The notes under the pieces are model-generated. The model searched no databases and was not told where the DNA came from. It saw only the letters and a list, made by a program, of their open reading frames with translations. Made by a program: the position numbers and the translations under genes. Shown piece by piece: positions 1-5,652 of a DNA stretch of 6,443 nucleotides. The stretch is from a virus. Taxonomy: Duplodnaviria > Heunggongvirae > Uroviricota > Caudoviricetes. The DNA lies in the IMG/VR virus record IMGVR_UViG_2531839666_000013, positions 1-6,443 of that record; one strand, 5' to 3'. Numbering within the stretch: the stretch's first letter is position 1; every line of letters begins with the position of its first letter.

Positions 1-697
1 CGGCGGGCACTTCTGCCGGTATTATCCGGGAAGGTACGGTTAATCAGCCTGTCACGGCGAAGACCATCCCCCTTGAACAGAAACACCCTGTTGCCCAGTC
101 CGTCACTCCGGCAACGACGCCAGAAACGATAGGCGTTATCTGTCACCCCGGCTTCCCCTCCCGTATCCACAGCCATGGCCATCAGACGCATGCGCACATC
201 CGGATCAGAAGCCAGCGGCCATGTTTTATGGAACACATCCGTCAGCAACAAATCCCAGTCCTCCGGATATGCTGCCGGATCAACCGGCAGACTTTCACCG
301 TTGGGACTGCAGCGTAGTGAATGCCGGATGTTGTAGCGATCAACAATCCAGCGTTCCCCCTGCTCTCCGTATCCGGTGATCTGCACAACAAAACGGCGAT
401 TTTTACCGCCCTGAACGTCAACCGTTGCCTCAATAAAACGCACACCATCCGGCACAGATCTCCGGGGAAACGGCTCGGCACGCTGTTCAAGCAGTTCACT
501 TTTACGCTGTTCCGTGGCTGAACGGGGCAGATAGGGCCGCCCGATATCGGTGTTCACCACCGCTTTCAGGGTCTCTTCACTGCCGGTTCGCTCATACTCT
601 TCTTCTGCCGCCAGCAGCTTAAAAATCAGTTGTTCCCAGGTCTGAAACGCCGCAGCCGGCCCCTCCATCCAGAAACTTGCTATTCTGGAATTTCGGG
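1..697 (-). CDS. A: Terminase large subunit (lambda gpA family), C-terminal portion; in a different frame from the N-terminal ORF, 3' end beyond window start
   Basis: Minus-strand frame with codons ending at 678, 675 ... 3 translates without stops as ...ASFWMEGPAAAFQTWEQLIFKLLAAEEEYERTGSEETLKAVVNTDIGRPY...VDVQGGKNRRFVVQITGYGEQGERWIVDRYNI...AVDTGGEAGVTDNAYRFWRRC.... From memory this is collinear with the lambda gpA region after the CPHCG motif (SPFTTWVQIV...FVNTTLGETWE...IDSQLDRYEMRVWGWG...). It carries no Met start because it continues the 680..1669 ORF after a frame change near 695-699. Confidence 0.75.
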
Positions 698-1669
698 GGT
701 TCCGGTGATACTGCCATCCACCGCTGCCCGTTCGCCTTCCCGCAGCCAGATCCCCTGGTTATTCAGTTCACGCTTCTGTTCCGGAGCAATCAGCCCGCGA
801 CAATGCGGACACATCAGACGGGCCGCCTGCCCGGCAGCCACAAAATCAGGGTTATTCCGGTAACCGGTCATGTTATCCATCACCGGCTGAAAATATTCCC
901 CGCAGTGCGGACACGGCCAGTACCACCGGCGGCGGTCTCCCCTGTTATACAGTGACAGGATCCCCGTTGTTGGCGGTGCCTCATGTGCGCCACCACAACG
1001 CCATTTGGTGTCAGTGATATCCCGCCCCGGTGAACTCTCAACCAGGGTCATCCCCGAAGACATAAAGGTGGTGGTACGCTTTGATGCCAGGGTGAAGGCA
1101 TCCCCTTCCCCGTCCACGTTTTCAGGGAAACGGTCATAATCCGTCAGCGCCACACGACGGTAATCCGAAGAGGAAAATACGGTGATCGACGGCCAGCCAA
1201 TTTTCAGGAATGAGCCGTCAAGAAACATTTTGTCGTGGACGTTGTTGTCATTACGGGAGGGGCTGAGGCGTTTGCAGACCTCCGGGCTGTGGCGAAACGT
1301 CCTGGAAAGACGCGTTCTGGAATGCTCACGCGCCTTCGTCTCGGTCATCTGCACCACCAGCATGTCCGCCGGATCACAGATGATGCCGTACACAATCCAG
1401 CCATCAATCAGCCCTTCGGTTTTCCCGGTTCGCGCAGGTCCGACAAACACCACCGCGTCATATTCACGGGCTGATAATGTATTAATGGGGTCTATCATAT
1501 AGGGCGTCAGCGATGACTCCCACGGACCGGAAGTATTGGCTCCCCGTGGTACCCGCATATAACGCCTGATGGCTTCCGCTACTGGTAACCGGCCAGGTGG
1601 GCGAAACAGCGAGGCCACTTCGCGCCAGATATCGGATGCGCGGCTATGGCTCTCGTTCACCTGATTCAC
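680..1669 (-). CDS. A: Terminase large subunit (lambda gpA family), N-terminal ATPase portion; ends at a premature TAG caused by an apparent 1-nt deletion
   Basis: 329-aa ORF with a P-loop (VVFVGPARTGKTEGL) and the gpA-like motifs SLFRPPG and WYWPCPHCGEYF...LMCPHCRGLI...GIWLREGE, matching lambda gpA SLFRPEP and FHVACPHCGEEQY...GIWTRDG. GTG start at 1669 with GAGG upstream, overlapping the stop of the upstream small-subunit gene. Only about half the expected gpA length before the stop at 680-682. Confidence 0.88.
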   Translation of the reverse strand: MNQVNESHSRASDIWREVASLFRPPGRLPVAEAIRRYMRVPRGANTSGPWESSLTPYMIDPINTLSAREYDAVVFVGPARTGKTEGLIDGWIVYGIICDPADMLVVQMTETKAREHSRTRLSRTFRHSPEVCKRLSPSRNDNNVHDKMFLDGSFLKIGWPSITVFSSSDYRRVALTDYDRFPENVDGEGDAFTLASKRTTTFMSSGMTLVESSPGRDITDTKWRCGGAHEAPPTTGILSLYNRGDRRRWYWPCPHCGEYFQPVMDNMTGYRNNPDFVAAGQAARLMCPHCRGLIAPEQKRELNNQGIWLREGERAAVDGSITGTPEIPE

Positions 1670-2142
1670 ATATCGGCCTCATCACAACAGTCAATGACTG
1701 CCTTTTCCAGTGTGTCGCGGATCTCATCAACCACAATCTGTACTTCATTCAGTTGTGATGCAGTCCACCCCCTGTCCCTCTCCAGCCGGTCAGGCCAGGT
1801 TTCCAGTACCTGAACTATCGCTTTCACCACGACAGAAAAGGACCGCCTGACATCACTGACTGGCACAAGCTGAACAGTTTCATGCTGAAATTTAAGACGC
1901 TCGCGCTCGGACTGATACCATGCCTTACGAGCGTGAGGATCCATATCCTCATCTTCGGAAGATGGTGGTTTTTCCAGCAACGAAGTTATCAAATCCGTCA
2001 GGAGATACAGTTTTTTCTTTTCATTACTGCCTGGTGCAAGAGGAACATCCGCCATTCTGGCGGCAACAGTCTGCCGGTGCAGACCTGAAAGGGCTGCCAG
2101 TTGATTAATATTTAACTTCATATTTTTCAGCTCGCCGTCCAT
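1666..2142 (-). CDS. nu1: Terminase small subunit (lambda Nu1-like, N-terminal HTH DNA-binding domain)
   Basis: 158-aa ORF; N-terminus MKLNINQLAALSGLHRQTVAARMADVPLAPG resembles lambda Nu1 MEVNKKQLADIFGASIRTIQNWQEQGMPVLRG. Sits immediately upstream of and overlapping the large-subunit start (ATGTGA / GTG). GGAGGG lies 6 nt upstream of the ATG at 2142; an alternative start is ATG 2121 (MKLNIN). Confidence 0.85.
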   Translation of the reverse strand: MDGELKNMKLNINQLAALSGLHRQTVAARMADVPLAPGSNEKKKLYLLTDLITSLLEKPPSSEDEDMDPHARKAWYQSERERLKFQHETVQLVPVSDVRRSFSVVVKAIVQVLETWPDRLERDRGWTASQLNEVQIVVDEIRDTLEKAVIDCCDEADM

Positions 2143-2319
2143 TTACATCCCTCCACATAAACCGCAGAACAGAAGTGACTCTGTTTTTTTGTAAAGAAAT
2201 GCCGCCATATAAAGATGTCGAACAAAAAACAACCACAATCATCATCTTTTTAATACTAACAGCATTAAAAACAACAAGTTACCATCATGATGATGATGAC
2301 GATAAAATCACAAAAATGC

Positions 2320-2350
2320 GCCTTTTTCCGCGCCGCCCGCCCCGTGTTCA
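2320..2350 (-). other. Candidate cos site (cosN-like GC-rich element) with an AT-rich cosB-like region between it and nu1
   Basis: Minus-strand ACGGGGCGGGCGGCGCGG (plus 2328..2344 is ccgcgccgcccgccccg) resembles the lambda cosN region ACG|GGGCGGCGACCT|CGCGGG and lies about 190 nt upstream of the nu1 start, the same spacing as in lambda. The intervening 2143..2327 is AT-rich with repeated GATGATGA/TCATCATC blocks and GTTGTTTTT copies. Exact nick positions cannot be derived from sequence alone. Confidence 0.35.
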
Positions 2351-2601
2351 GGCCCACCCCACCAGGAGGACCCGCAAAATGATAATGGTTATCATTTGCA
2401 ATGTAGTCCGGTTTCTTCCACCATCGCACCGGACCAGCGACCATGAGGGGACAACGCCGCGCTCCGTTAACGCGGTAAACCCCGGTGTGTATCGTTTTTG
2501 ATTATCCCCGCACACTCGCGCAGAGGAGTCTCCCTGTCGGGCTGCGGTCTCTGTTAATACGGGAATACGGCGACAATACCGCGCATGGATAATAAGGTCG
2601 C

Positions 2602-2849: not shown

Positions 2850-3323
2850 CTAGTTAATACACTGAGTGCGGATATATTCCTTCGCCCCTTCCAGCTGCTT
2901 CTGCATTGTCATCAACCGTTCTCTGAGGATGAAATAATCCCGTTCAGCGGTGTCTGCCAGTCGGGGGCCGGTTGCATTATCCACGCCGGAGGTGCCGGTG
3001 GCTTCACGCACTGTACCGGGGCAGGTGGCGTTGATCCGCAGGCGCTTACGACCAGCGGCAACATCAGCACGCAGAGTTTCATTTTCAGCTCTCGCATCGG
3101 CTAATTCCCTCGAGTATTTTGCATCGAGCGCAGCAACATCGCGCTGGCGCACCTGCATATCAGTAATGGTTGCGTTTGCCAGCTCCAGCTCTCTGGCTTT
3201 TTTATCGCGCTGCGCTTTGTAGGTGATGGCGTTATCGCGGTAATGATTCAGCCCCAGACTAAGCACACCACAGACCACCAGCAGAATAACGGTAAACGCG
3301 GAAAGCATTCGGTTTATGCTCAC
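2850..3323 (-). CDS. Rz: Rz i-spanin (inner-membrane spanin subunit)
   Basis: 157-aa product is near-collinear with lambda Rz: N-terminal TM segment then [58 protein letters not shown]...[29 protein letters not shown] start at 3323 overlaps the TGA of the upstream small gene. Confidence 0.92.
2912..3097 (-). CDS. Rz1: Rz1 o-spanin lipoprotein, embedded in the +1 frame of Rz
   Basis: 61-aa product [61 protein letters not shown] closely matches lambda Rz1 (MLKLKMMLCV...[27 protein letters not shown]). Lipobox LVVSAC, proline-rich, wholly inside Rz. Confidence 0.88.
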
Positions 3324-3804: not shown

Positions 3805-4338
3805 TTATCTGTCGATTCCCCAGCACGCCAGCGCACTCTCCTGGTCGCGACGGGATACCTGACCGTAGCAATTATTTGAGCGGATACGGCAGTCTCTGCC
3901 ACCGTCCTTAATCCACCAGCGAATCGCTTCACACGCTCCCCTGCGATCGCCTGCATTAATTCGTTTATAAAACGTCGACGGGAAACACTTACCGGGGCCA
4001 ATGTTATACGGGCAGAATGACGCAATACCCGCTTTCTGGGGTTCAGTCAGTGGCACTTTGATGTTTTTCTCCACCCATGCCAGCGCCTTATCACGCTCAA
4101 TGGCGTTAACCCGGTCGCATTTCCCCTTCGACAGCTTCATGCCAGGAATCACAGGCTTACCATCCACCCGGGTGGCTCCACGGCAGATGGTCCAGATACC
4201 CGCACCATCACGGTATGCCGTGGTGTGGTTACCTTCTTTTTCATCCAGAAACTGGTCGAGGATTTCAGGCGCAGAAGCCCCTGCGGCAATCAGCGCCAGA
4301 ACAGCAGCTGACAGGCCGTATTTGATTTTTGCGTTCAT
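3805..4338 (-). CDS. R: SAR endolysin (phage lysozyme, glycoside hydrolase family 24, R21-like)
   Basis: 177-aa product with an N-terminal Gly/Ala-rich signal-anchor-release segment (YGLSAAVLALIAAGASA) followed by EGNHTTAYRDGAGIWTICRG, which matches the E-x8-D-x5-T catalytic arrangement of phage 21 R ([20 protein letters not shown]). Pairs functionally with the pinholin upstream. Confidence 0.92.
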   Translation of the reverse strand: MNAKIKYGLSAAVLALIAAGASAPEILDQFLDEKEGNHTTAYRDGAGIWTICRGATRVDGKPVIPGMKLSKGKCDRVNAIERDKALAWVEKNIKVPLTEPQKAGIASFCPYNIGPGKCFPSTFYKRINAGDRRGACEAIRWWIKDGGRDCRIRSNNCYGQVSRRDQESALACWGIDR

Positions 4339-4374: not shown

Positions 4375-4563
4375 CTAAATACGCACTTTAAGATAAGTCA
4401 GCCCCGGCTGGATCCAGTTATCAGGCTCAGTCTTAAAGGGTGGAGTATTGAAATCACGAAGAACGGTCTCCCGCACAACTGCATCCTTGTCAGCACCACT
4501 GGCCAGCGCTTCAATCTCAGCAGCTACCTGAAGATATCCCATGCAACGACCAATACGCTTCAT
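4375..4563 (-). CDS. Hypothetical protein (62 aa), second gene of a two-gene cargo module
   Basis: ATG at 4563-4561 overlaps the TGA of the upstream 265-aa gene (ATGA), with AGGGG 5 nt upstream; product [62 protein letters not shown]. No family recognised. Confidence 0.5.
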   Translation of the reverse strand: MKRIGRCMGYLQVAAEIEALASGADKDAVVRETVLRDFNTPPFKTEPDNWIQPGLTYLKVRI

Positions 4564-5360
4564 CAGCCCCTGTTTTTATTGTTCTTCAGGTAATCAATGG
4601 CAAATTCAATGAGCATCTCACAGTGCTGGTGCGATGGCGGTGTTACTTTTCCATTTTCTGATATGGTGATTTTCCCGTCATCACCGGATACAACAAAGGA
4701 TGGCCGGTTACACTCCCGTTCCTGGTTTTTGTCCGACACAGGCACAGTAAAATCACTTTCATGCCCGTTTTTACGACAGTCCTCGCCACGTACCGCAGCA
4801 AATACCGACAAGGCATACTCCTTTGCTCTCGCTTCATAGTCGCTGAATGTTGTTTTCGGATCGTAGTCTTCCCTGTACATAACCGACAGAACTTCCTCAT
4901 GATCAATATGAACACTGACCACGCTGCCTATTCTTTTGGTCAGCACAAGACGAGAATCTTCCCCGACTTTCACTCCTGGTGTCACACGTGCCGGAAGCTC
5001 CACATTAACCATCGCGCTCTGCACATCATCAGGCGCATTTTTTACCGGTTCGTTGACCTTTTCACGCCCCGGGTAAGTGGCGATTTTTTCCGGCATTGTC
5101 CATGAAGAAATATTCTGAAAGCCATATCGCGCAGTCCCTTCGCGTAATCCGAGAGCCGCATCCATGAAAAACTGCTTCGCCTGTTTTTTCGCCTCAGCTT
5201 CGTAAAACTCCAGCGTGGCACCTTCAGTACGGTCAAGACTAATCGCCACATATGGCGACAACAACGACGGCTGCCCGGCAATTACCAGTGCCACAGTAAC
5301 AGTTATCTTATCCGGGTAATGATTTATCCCTTTTACAACCAGTTCATATTTTTTATTCAT
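4563..5360 (-). CDS. Hypothetical protein (265 aa), cargo gene between pinholin and endolysin
   Basis: ATG at 5360 ([18 protein letters not shown]...) preceded by GGGGAG. Long stop-free frame to TGA at 4563-4565 with protein-like composition. In the ORF track it appears fused in frame to the holin as a 355-aa ORF (4563..5630), but the holin part is clearly a separate gene. One hydrophobic stretch ([22 protein letters not shown]) near the N-terminus; no motif I can assign. Confidence 0.7.
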
Positions 5361-5364
5361 CGCT

Positions 5365-5578
5365 TTACTCTCCCCGGGCGCCTTACGACGGTCTTCTTTA
5401 ATCTTGAAATACAGGTTCGTCAGGTACGTCAGCAGACCAAACAGCAGACTCCCCAGCACGCCTATTGCCGCCCACTGAGACGGGGAAACCCTGTCCAGCA
5501 ACTGCAGGAACCAGTAGCCCGTTCCACCGCTGACGTGGTGTATGACACACCTGTTGTGAATTTTTCCATCTGGTACAT
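5365..5578 (-). pseudogene. S: Class II pinholin (phage 21 S21-like) with dual-start motif; reading frame broken twice by apparent 1-nt deletions
   Basis: Frame B from ATG 5578 gives [17 protein letters not shown] (S21: MKSMDKISTGIAYGTSA); frame A then gives [50 protein letters not shown] (S21: [47 protein letters not shown]). Restoring one base near 5372-5381 recreates ...GE-TAA at 5365-5367, as in S21. It may equally be intact in reality if the deletions are sequencing errors. Confidence 0.8.
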
Positions 5579-5652
5579 ACCCGTCTCCGCAATCCGGAAG
5601 CTCACAACAATATAAAGACCACCGGCACACACCGATGGTCCCTTGCGCATGC

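Follow-up and report, generated by a model that had tools for sequence, protein, structure and literature searches.

The analysed window, a stretch of 6,443 nucleotides from a tailed-virus record of IMG/VR (IMGVR_UViG_2531839666_000013), covers the late region of a lambdoid prophage, in which the genes lie on the minus strand. Read along that strand, it contains genes for a holin/DUF1327 protein, the R lysozyme (3805-4338) and Rz (2850-3323), two small ORF remnants, an intergenic stretch, and the genes encoding the small (terS, 1666..2142) and large (terL, 1..1669) terminase subunits, the latter running off the window start. The succession of lysis genes, cos region, terS and gpA-type terL is the gene context of lambda. 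The closest phage records, with 94-96% identity, are long-tailed Stx-converting phages and VT1-Sakai (Sp15), and none of the complete RefSeq E. coli genomes is identical to the window, the best reaching ~96%.

The terS gene, preceded by a GGAGG Shine-Dalgarno sequence 7 nt before its ATG, encodes a 158-aa protein mapping to DUF1441 (PF07278; E 3.8e-48) and to PHROG 141 (phrog_141, 'terminase small subunit'; E 6e-66). A preliminary description of this DNA had named the gene nu1, a designation that has to be dropped, since the Pfam scan returned only DUF1441 and the protein falls outside the Nu1 family (Phage_Nu1). A phmmer search of TerS against the PDB returned no match, and hhalign aligned its residues 9-122 co-linearly, and weakly, with residues 2-138 of lambda Nu1 (P 14%, E 0.0019). 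The N-terminal region of an AF2 model of TerS (33 homologues, pLDDT 77) presents a strand, a helix (12-19), a turn, a second helix (23-29), a long loop, a strand and a further helix (48-57), which is the order of elements of a winged HTH. Foldseek searches with this model gave no hit at E <= 1e-3. The best local hits, all with E > 0.05, were to regulators of the MerR family and to the DNA-binding domains of small-terminase or packaging proteins (7lw0 and 7lwr) and of gpNu1 (1j9i; 53 columns superposed at 2.9 A, prob 0.92), as well as to 6hn7_B, one of the chains from the Rpp-TerS study. The model is consistent with a Nu1-like winged HTH at the TerS N-terminus, but does not establish it.

The adjacent large terminase is of the gpA type (PF05876, GpA_ATPase, E 2.5e-81), and its protein sequence is 99% identical to that of VT1-Sakai TerL. 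The latter, used as tblastn query, matches in two frames, -2 for residues 1-325 and -1 for residues 324-556. The terL frameshift that the preliminary description had considered is thus real in this sequence, and stems from the loss of one cytosine in a C6 run (C5 at 699..695, GGAAC-CCCCGAAA) that is intact, with an open frame, in two related loci carrying the same terL allele (L111 and L139). The C5 run may be either real decay or a homopolymer sequencing error.

cosQ, cosN and the predicted cohesive end

The intergenic stretch upstream of terS had been described as a cos-like region, and the described features were all found where they had been placed. Alignment with lambda cos and its relatives, the check suggested at the time, revealed homology to cosQ and cosN of the lambda type; all the features discussed below are read on the minus strand. 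The best local match to the joined ends of lambda is not the GC-rich block that had been noticed previously, but the segment just upstream of it (ATGATAACCATTATCATTTTGCGGGTCCT, 2395..2367), homologous to the lambda right end and identical at 26 of 29 positions to lambda ATGATAATCATTATCACTTTACGGGTCCT (48,4xx). This block ends in the heptamer GGGTCCT (2373..2367), which we take to be the 7-bp cosQ of lambda. In lambda, cosQ is the packaging-termination signal. The heptamer, at 2367-2373, lies outside the coordinates of the preliminary description, which had missed cosQ.

For comparative purposes, we assembled ~150 related IMG/VR loci, 69 of them identified by an exact 18-mer (95 matches minus 26 unrelated GC-rich chance matches) and 80 by TerS. 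In all these loci, cosQ and cosN are followed by an A/T-tract segment (CGGAAAAAGGCGCATTTTT in the window), with a variable cosB after it. The GGGTCCT heptamer, which occurs a single time in the window, is kept at the same position in nearly all of them. It is separated from the predicted left nick by 24 nt in the window and by 23 nt in lambda, in agreement with a lambda-like cos in the sense of the Feiss laboratory, for which an invariant 7-bp cosQ about 30 bp upstream of that nick is expected. The spacer between cosQ and cosN (CCTGGTGGGGTGGGCCTGAACACG, 2343..2366) is conserved in length and sequence across the family, and the composite GGGTCCT-N20-26-CGGGGCGG has a single occurrence in the window and does not appear in any of 200 dinucleotide-preserving shuffles.

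The GC block (ACGGGGCGGGCGGCGCGG, 2345..2328) encompasses the putative cosN (2329..2344), consisting of GGGCGGGCGGCG with a CG dinucleotide on each side. Nicks are predicted between 2343 and 2342 on the left and, on the other strand, between 2331 and 2330 on the right, yielding a 12-nt 5' cohesive end GGGCGGGCGGCG at 2342..2331. As previously proposed, the block resembles lambda cosN and differs from it: ACG/GGGCGG (the slash marking the left nick) is identical in both, and bp 7-12, counted from the first base after ACG (G1, 2342), vary. Relative to the lambda overhang GGGCGGCGACCT, GGGCGGGCGGCG is identical at bp 1-6 and bp 11, and differs at five of the six positions of bp 7-12. This is the published pattern for lambda-like phages, in which bp 7-12 vary against a constant background made up of the highly conserved 7-bp cosQ site, the left overhang half and the CGs on either side (PMC4669245), and by the overhang comparison taken from that work the window groups with the lambda-like cos sites. 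With a 12-nt overhang, CG flanks both predicted nicks and 10 of the 16 cosN positions are two-fold symmetric, exactly as in lambda by the same count.

The position of the right-hand nick, and with it the length of the overhang (most likely 12 nt, within a range of 10-13 nt), is uncertain because the right half of cosN varies in length. This half is 3 nt shorter in the window than in lambda and 2-3 nt shorter than in phages LLS and cdtI, and differs by 1-3 nt among close relatives. The distance between G1 and the A-tract is correspondingly 15 nt in the window, 16 nt in two related loci (L110 and L114), 17 nt in cdtI and in two of the cosB classes defined below (C and D), and 18 nt in lambda and LLS. 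This variation would be expected if the site were a genuine lambda-like cos in which the right nick is set by distance from cosB, generating not the 12-mer GGGCGGGCGGCG but a cohesive end of 10 nt (GGGCGGGCGG, followed by CG), 11 or 13 nt. A 10-nt overhang would also be flanked by CG, with 8 of 14 symmetric positions, and a 13-nt overhang provides the best fit for the 16-nt variants. In addition, the distant relative Cr-LKS3 has measured 9-nt 5' cohesive ends with the same flanking dinucleotides (PMC9303873), and overhang length is therefore not fixed in the wider group. We nonetheless hold a length other than 12 nt to be unlikely, if well worth considering, given that it is the 12-nt overhang that confers on the window the symmetry and CG flanks of lambda, that nick spacing in lambda has been ascribed to a symmetric TerL dimer (PMC9026076), and that the record starts of two relatives, yong2 and LLS, are offset by exactly 12 nt. 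The 15/16/17/18-nt polymorphism, detected among very close relatives with an otherwise identical cosB, could also indicate that overhang length itself varies, which, if true, would bear on how the TerL dimer measures nick spacing.

The ends of deposited genomes fit the 12-nt prediction. Among the 56 records returned by a tblastn search of TerS against the phage collection, three begin at positions matching the predicted nicks. The cdtI record starts at the homologous G1 (GGGCGGGAGCGT), with terS at bp 185, as does the LLS record (GGGCGGCGCGCT), in which terS begins at bp 130 and whose depositors annotated a 5' cohesive site of 12 nt; the record of the Hafnia phage yong2 begins exactly 12 nt downstream of the position homologous to G1. 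This agreement falls short of physical proof, since record starts are the depositors' choices and the LLS end was derived by its authors from homology to the putative mEp213 cos instead of being measured (PMC12315714). Of the 94 IMG/VR stretches containing the exact 18-mer, none ends at the site. Matches near the record ends of mEp460, mEp213 and mEp043 were set aside because these records begin at the terS ATG and their ends are hence arbitrary, and the record of mEp460_4F5, which begins 5 nt left of the predicted nick, was uninformative.

Subsites of the cosB spacer and their covariation with TerS

The first base after ACG (2342) lies 200 nt before the terS ATG (2142), which places this start codon at bp 201. 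The preliminary description had stated that the distance to the small-terminase start matches that of lambda, and the corresponding position of lambda nu1 is bp 191. The related loci fall into four cosB classes that track TerS identity to the window (A, 93-100%; B, 77%; C, 59%; D, mEp460-like, 56%), with the window belonging to class A. An element approximating TTCGWCAYC recurs at three places across these classes. It is present in forward orientation at bp ~40-51 (ATCGTCATC in A, TTCGTCATC in D and CACCATCA-type sequences in B and C), inverted at bp ~95-99 (TTCGACACT in B, TTCGACATA in C, ATCGACACC in D and a weaker ATCATCATC in A, which reads GATGATGAT on the packaging strand), and again in forward orientation at bp ~120 (TTCGACATC in A and C, TTCATCAC in B and D), where it is always preceded by a T-tract. 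The inverted 9-mers of classes B, C and D are of the TTCGACAC/T type. No variation was seen within the proposed subsites in 35 distinct class-A copies, and the variable positions lie between them, at bp 57-61, 79-92 and 105-112; every conserved position of this class-A footprint is intact in the window.

The segment immediately following cosN (CGGAAAAAGGCGCATTTTTGTGATTTT, 2304..2330) contains an A5/T5 tract and hardly varies within classes A and B; in the form CGCGG(G)AAA(A/C)GGCTAGTTTTT it is still recognisable in LLS, yong2, cdtI and the two remaining classes, C and D. Its position suggests that it may be the equivalent of lambda I2 (PMC4669245). It is followed by a candidate TerS site resembling R3, ATCGTCATC and then ATCATCAT (2287..2303, bp 40-56), which matches TTCGWCAYC with one mismatch and is invariant in the 35 class-A copies, the next 5 nt being variable. 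The CATCATCATCAT run of this site is also found at bp ~45 in LLS and yong2, whose TerS proteins are ~50% identical to that of the window and have the APGSN wing motif in common with it; in lambda, R3 spans bp 50-65 (PMC9026076). A palindrome at bp 51-60 (CATCATGATG) was considered as a further site and rejected, as it is not conserved in relatives.

The next conserved segment, TAACTTGTTGTTT (2269..2281), is a candidate IHF site equivalent to I1, with its complement AAACAACAAGTTA matching the consensus WATCAANNNNTTR with one mismatch. The corresponding stretch of the window (TAACTTGTTGTTTTTA) is identical at 14 of 16 positions to lambda TAACTTAATGTTTTTA (lambda bp 74-89), which lies between R3 and R2, where I1 has been placed. 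In 10 of 11 diverged cos regions, the consensus occurs with at most one mismatch and in unchanged orientation at bp 61-64; classes B and D, cdtI and one class-A variant match it perfectly. A single match of this kind is not significant on its own (shuffle mean ~0.5), and it is the constant position and orientation that carry weight.

Beyond the putative IHF site, an inverted R2-like candidate, AAAAAGATGATGAT (2238..2251, bp 92-105), contains GATGATGAT, the complement of ATCATCATC. It is invariant in class A, including the copies carried by the terminase-less island described below, and the window copy presents two mismatches to the family 9-mer. The following block (2214..2235) combines a T-tract (TGGTTGTTTTTT) with an R1-like TTCGACATC (2222..2214, bp 121-129) that is in the R3 orientation and matches the family 9-mer perfectly. 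All four cosB classes have a T-tract followed by TTC(G/A)(A/T)CA(T/C)C, and the block is invariant in class-A phage and island copies. This R1-like TTCGACATC had not been listed by the earlier reader. The distal conserved block TCTTTACAAAAAAAC (2183..2197, bp 146-160) is the probable right-hand limit of cos, because it is the last segment common to the island copy.

The spacer repeats on which the preliminary description had relied are present, and correspond in part to these subsites. The triplet repeats TTATCGTCATCATCATCATGAT (2305..2284) and AAAAGATGATGAT (2250..2238) coincide with the R3-like and R2-like candidates, respectively, and the two GTTGTTTTT copies (2275..2267 and 2233..2225) are the only ones in the whole window on either strand. 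The proposal that the repeats are equivalents of R elements and IHF sites is upheld insofar as they are conserved islands in the family-wide footprint and the first GTTGTTTTT lies within the IHF-like site; it fails for the second GTTGTTTTT, which forms the T-tract preceding the R1-like TTCGACATC.

The 200-nt spacer contains two instances of TTCGWCAYC with at most one mismatch, against a shuffle mean of 0.19, with 4 of 300 shuffles reaching two. Because the 9-mer was derived partly from the window, a fairer test is offered by LLS and yong2, which were left out of its derivation, and in both of these phages a perfect inverted TTCGACATC is found at the R2 position (bp 98-99). The data hence outline a putative subsite order of R3-like, IHF site, inverted R2-like and R1-like elements, the order given for lambda, phi80, 21 and Gifsy-1 (PMC9026076). 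At the sequence level, the window contains between cosN and terS a putative cosB of the R3-I1-R2-R1 type with R2 inverted, and this layout is observed in the four cosB classes.

The comparison of the window (class A) with a class-B phage reveals that cosB co-varies with the DNA-binding domain of TerS. DNA identity between them is 96-100% from bp -90 to +29, 3-66% from bp 30 to ~450, and ~100% beyond. In TerS, 58 of 58 residues are identical at positions 101-158, 11 of 36 at positions 31-66, and 17 of 20 in the HTH helices (11-30). The divergent cassette thus encompasses spacer bp 30-200 and TerS residues 1 to ~85, with near-identical flanks, and since divergence is confined to it, the spacer and the TerS N-terminal domain define the exchanged unit. 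This pattern appears to be that of a specificity cassette of the lambda/21 type. A second covariation is apparent across lineages, with the APGSN wing (class A, LLS and yong2) accompanying a CATCATCATCAT first site and the AGGH(E/D) wing (classes B, C and D) accompanying first sites of the CAYCACC type.

A terminase-less island and the functional status of the site

A salient feature of the comparative analysis was the presence, at 22 of the loci identified by the 18-mer, of an element without terminase that supplies 12 of the 35 distinct class-A sequences. This island is a ~10-kb integrative element with its own protease-capsid fusion, no rpp and a complete class-A cosB, and it integrates within terL of prophages sharing this cos class. 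Island and phage copies are near-identical from bp ~-35 to +132 and at bp 146-165, with a 100% conserved cosQ-cosN spacer, and are unrelated elsewhere, including bp 133-145 and beyond ~165. These limits appear to constitute a natural deletion map, delimiting a functional unit of ~200 bp that has the size of lambda cos. One possibility is that the island is a satellite, disabling the packaging system of its helper and at the same time mimicking it, in which case the window cos would be one node of a helper-satellite network. That the ~10-kb element is a helper-mimicking satellite, or that overhang length varies (10-13 nt) within one terminase lineage, is a proposition that we regard as rather improbable. 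The attachment site of the island lies ~30 nt from the terL frameshift, but the frameshift is not a scar of it: the divergent patch is a natural allele, intact in five related loci (L111, L139, L113, L122 and L123).

Based on its sequence, window 2183-2395 on the minus strand is, with high probability, the cos site of a lambdoid prophage whose terminase combines a gpA-type TerL with a DUF1441-type TerS. At this site, TerS dimers would bind the R-like 9-mers (R3, bp 40-56; inverted R2, bp 97-105; R1, bp 121-129) and an IHF-induced bend would lie between R3 and R2 (bp 62-74). The bound complex would position TerL for staggered nicks at cosN, leaving a 5' overhang GGGCGGGCGGCG, most likely of 12 nt. 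Terminase would thereby cleave the replicated DNA into units of genome length and begin to fill heads with them, with packaging running toward terS and hence toward lower window coordinates, and the upstream GGGTCCT (cosQ) together with cosN would act as the termination signal on arrival of the next cos. The binding of TerS and IHF, the nick positions and the activity of the window copy are all predictions from this comparative evidence.

The site could instead be an inactive relic, descended from a cos but no longer cut or packaged in a decaying prophage, as might be suspected from the terL frameshift and from a window that covers only 6.4 kb of the prophage. We deem this improbable. All conserved positions of the class-A footprint are intact, E. 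coli O145 RM9872 contains a 196-nt core at 100% identity, 290 complete genomes match this core at 99% or better, and the frameshift is a single homopolymer change that may be a sequencing error. Unless it is such an error, the site requires terminase in trans, as the preliminary description had suggested, and a second prophage of this cos class resident in the cell could plausibly provide it. Terminase-defective prophages of O157 Sakai with an intact cos are packaged in trans in this manner, with the defective Sp4, whose putative cos is identical to that of Sp14, being most likely packaged by the Sp14 terminase (PMC2669165).

A reading of the AT-rich repeats as a terS control region (promoter, operator or terminator) and of the GC block as a terminator stem, with no packaging site, is highly improbable. 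The stretch is intergenic and AT-rich, bears T-tracts and short repeats directly upstream of a gene, and contains one weak sigma-70-like match, on the plus strand. The corresponding scans, however, remained at chance level, with no terminator-like sites found in the region and a count of promoter-like sites equal to the chance expectation of 1.0, and the RNA fold of the GC block region was unremarkable (z-score -0.12). Furthermore, such a control region would leave unexplained the homology to lambda cosQ and cosN, the constant cosQ-cosN spacing and the retention of this segment by an island devoid of terS. A coding role for 2143-2350 was rejected on account of single-nucleotide indels throughout the segment among close relatives, and headful packaging is at odds with a gpA-type TerL and with the cosQ/cosN homology.

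Understood as a cos site, the region is an ordinary yet well-preserved case of a known type. The lambda packaging model is extended to a sister TerS family, and the concept of cos packaging is unchanged. This cos class was identified in 700 of 5,426 complete E. coli genomes (~13%), with up to five copies per genome. The site would set the probable virion genome ends and packaging direction for a prophage type that includes those of O157, O145 and Stx-converting phages, and it predicts which co-resident prophages could package each other's DNA, virulence cargo included, when one terminase is broken. As far as our literature search found, the anatomy described here is also the first explicit subsite map for the cos sites of DUF1441-type small terminases.

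Comparison with known packaging sites

The likeness to lambda cos encompasses the cosQ heptamer and the 26/29 block that contains it, the spacing to the left nick (24 versus 23 nt), ACG/GGGCGG, the CG flanks and the 10/16 symmetry of cosN, the layout of R-like, IHF, inverted R-like and direct R-like elements, the 14/16 match at the IHF site and the adjacent gpA-type TerL. The two sites differ in that the R elements of the window conform to TTCGWCAYC/(CAT)n and those of lambda have a CGTTTCC core, in the distance of R3 and I1 from cosN, which is ~10-12 bp less in the window, and in their R2-R1 spacing (~24 bp in the window versus ~50 in lambda). In addition, the window TerS belongs to DUF1441 and that of lambda to Nu1, and the right flank of cosN is 3 nt shorter in the window. 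The relationship between classes A and B parallels that between lambda and 21, with shared cosQ and cosN and a different cosB and TerS N-terminal domain (PMC4669245). Here, however, the HTH helices are nearly unchanged and the divergence is located in the wing and helix 3 (31-66), and the associated specificity is putative.

The putative cos sites of mEp213/LLS and cdtI are related to that of the window by TerS family (50% and 37% identity, respectively), by the cosQ-cosN layout and by the A/T-tract after cosN. LLS also presents the CATCATCATCAT run and the inverted TTCGACATC at bp 98, but its terS starts at bp 130, leaving no room for an R1 at bp ~121, and its end is an inferred one (PMC12315714). 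The cdtI site is without TTCGWCAYC elements, and in both phages the right half of cosN has a different sequence and is 2-3 nt longer. The cos sites of Gram-negative PICIs of the EcCICFT073 type likewise combine a lambda-like cosQ and cosN on a mobile element with the use of a helper terminase (PMC6092414, PMC9026076). Their cosB consists of R3 only, with rpp at bp ~102 and recognition by an Rpp-TerS complex, whereas the window presents a full R3-IHF-R2-R1 array. The R3-only cosB, rpp at ~bp 100 and lack of terminase genes that define these elements (PMC9026076) are not observed in the window, where terS and terL follow cos. A parallel to the situation of the window is offered by the lambdoid prophages Sp4 and Sp14 of O157 Sakai, in which a putative cos was likewise found by alignment with lambda and a terminase-defective copy is packaged (PMC2669165).

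An apparent mosaic junction and a variable cosN at the cos region

Comparison with phages carrying other packaging modules (ASU11, Stx1a phages and JLK-2012) revealed that similarity to the window ends sharply within positions 2350-2406. The match to ASU11 stops at 2350, just before cosN, that to the Stx1a phages stops at 2367, at cosQ, and a third breakpoint lies at 2406. These abrupt ends within the aligned sequences suggest that the cos region has been a recurrent mosaic junction between the lysis and packaging modules.

The right half of cosN also differs in length among close relatives. When window positions 2328-2342 were compared with five related loci (L110, L114, L117, L143 and L165), variants of 15 nt (GGGCGGGCGGCGCGG), 16 nt (GGGCGGGCGGGCGCGG and GGGCGGGTCGGCGCGG) and 17 nt (GGGCGGGAGCGTCGCGG) were identified. 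The variation does not extend to the left half of cosN, to cosQ or to the A/T-tract. The length of the overhang may differ between these variants. The mEp460_4F5 record (LR595868.1; L104:1-20 and L105) opens with CCACGGGGCGGG, at a point 5 nt left of the predicted nick, and the right half of its cosN (GGGCGGGAGCGCGG) lacks 3 nt relative to the other loci of class D, the cosB class typified by mEp460. Both the short cosN and the start of this record may be an artefact of assembly at genome ends.

Atypical reading frames around cos

Two small minus-strand ORFs with partial PHROG matches are located between Rz and cos. In the 97-aa ORF (2348-2641), within which cosQ would fall, the match to an Rz-like spanin is confined to residues 20-64, and in the 80-aa ORF (2602-2844) the match to phrog_2571 is confined to its C-terminal part (positions 98-172 of 291). 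Both look like gene remnants. Further away, a single mechanically called ORF of 355 aa (4563-5630, minus strand) has a P21-type holin domain at residues 34-84 as well as a DUF1327 domain at residues 91-165, and could represent either a real fusion or an artefact caused by a missing stop or by a start called too early. On the same strand, a C homopolymer in terL (695-699) is one nucleotide short, reading C5 where the same allele in two relatives (L111 and L139) reads C6. The loss shifts the TerL frame at about residue 325, with a TAG downstream at ~680, and could mean either that the gene is truly becoming a pseudogene or that the homopolymer was misread in sequencing.

An integrative element within terL

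In prophages with a DUF1441-family TerS, terL is interrupted by an integrative element of ~10.4 kb, with copies at L016:4780-7208 and L190:2597-13015 (E. coli O157:H7 ECP19-198, NZ_CP066759.1) and further instances in L097, L010, L012, L026, L070, L112 and L114. Its att core, TTGGATG, maps to terL nt ~999-1010. The element encodes an integrase, an HTH regulator, a BRO-N protein, an Icd-like protein, a D5-type primase, SSB, a ClpP-protease/capsid fusion and a 93-aa ORF (phrog_1561), and carries a cos that is identical from bp -35 to +132, counted from the first base after the predicted left nick, to class A, the window's own class. This element may act as a satellite, disrupting the terL of its helper while mimicking the helper's complete cos. 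Since it contains no terS, terL or rpp, it is unlike the published EcCICFT073-type PICIs, which combine an R3-only cosB with rpp.
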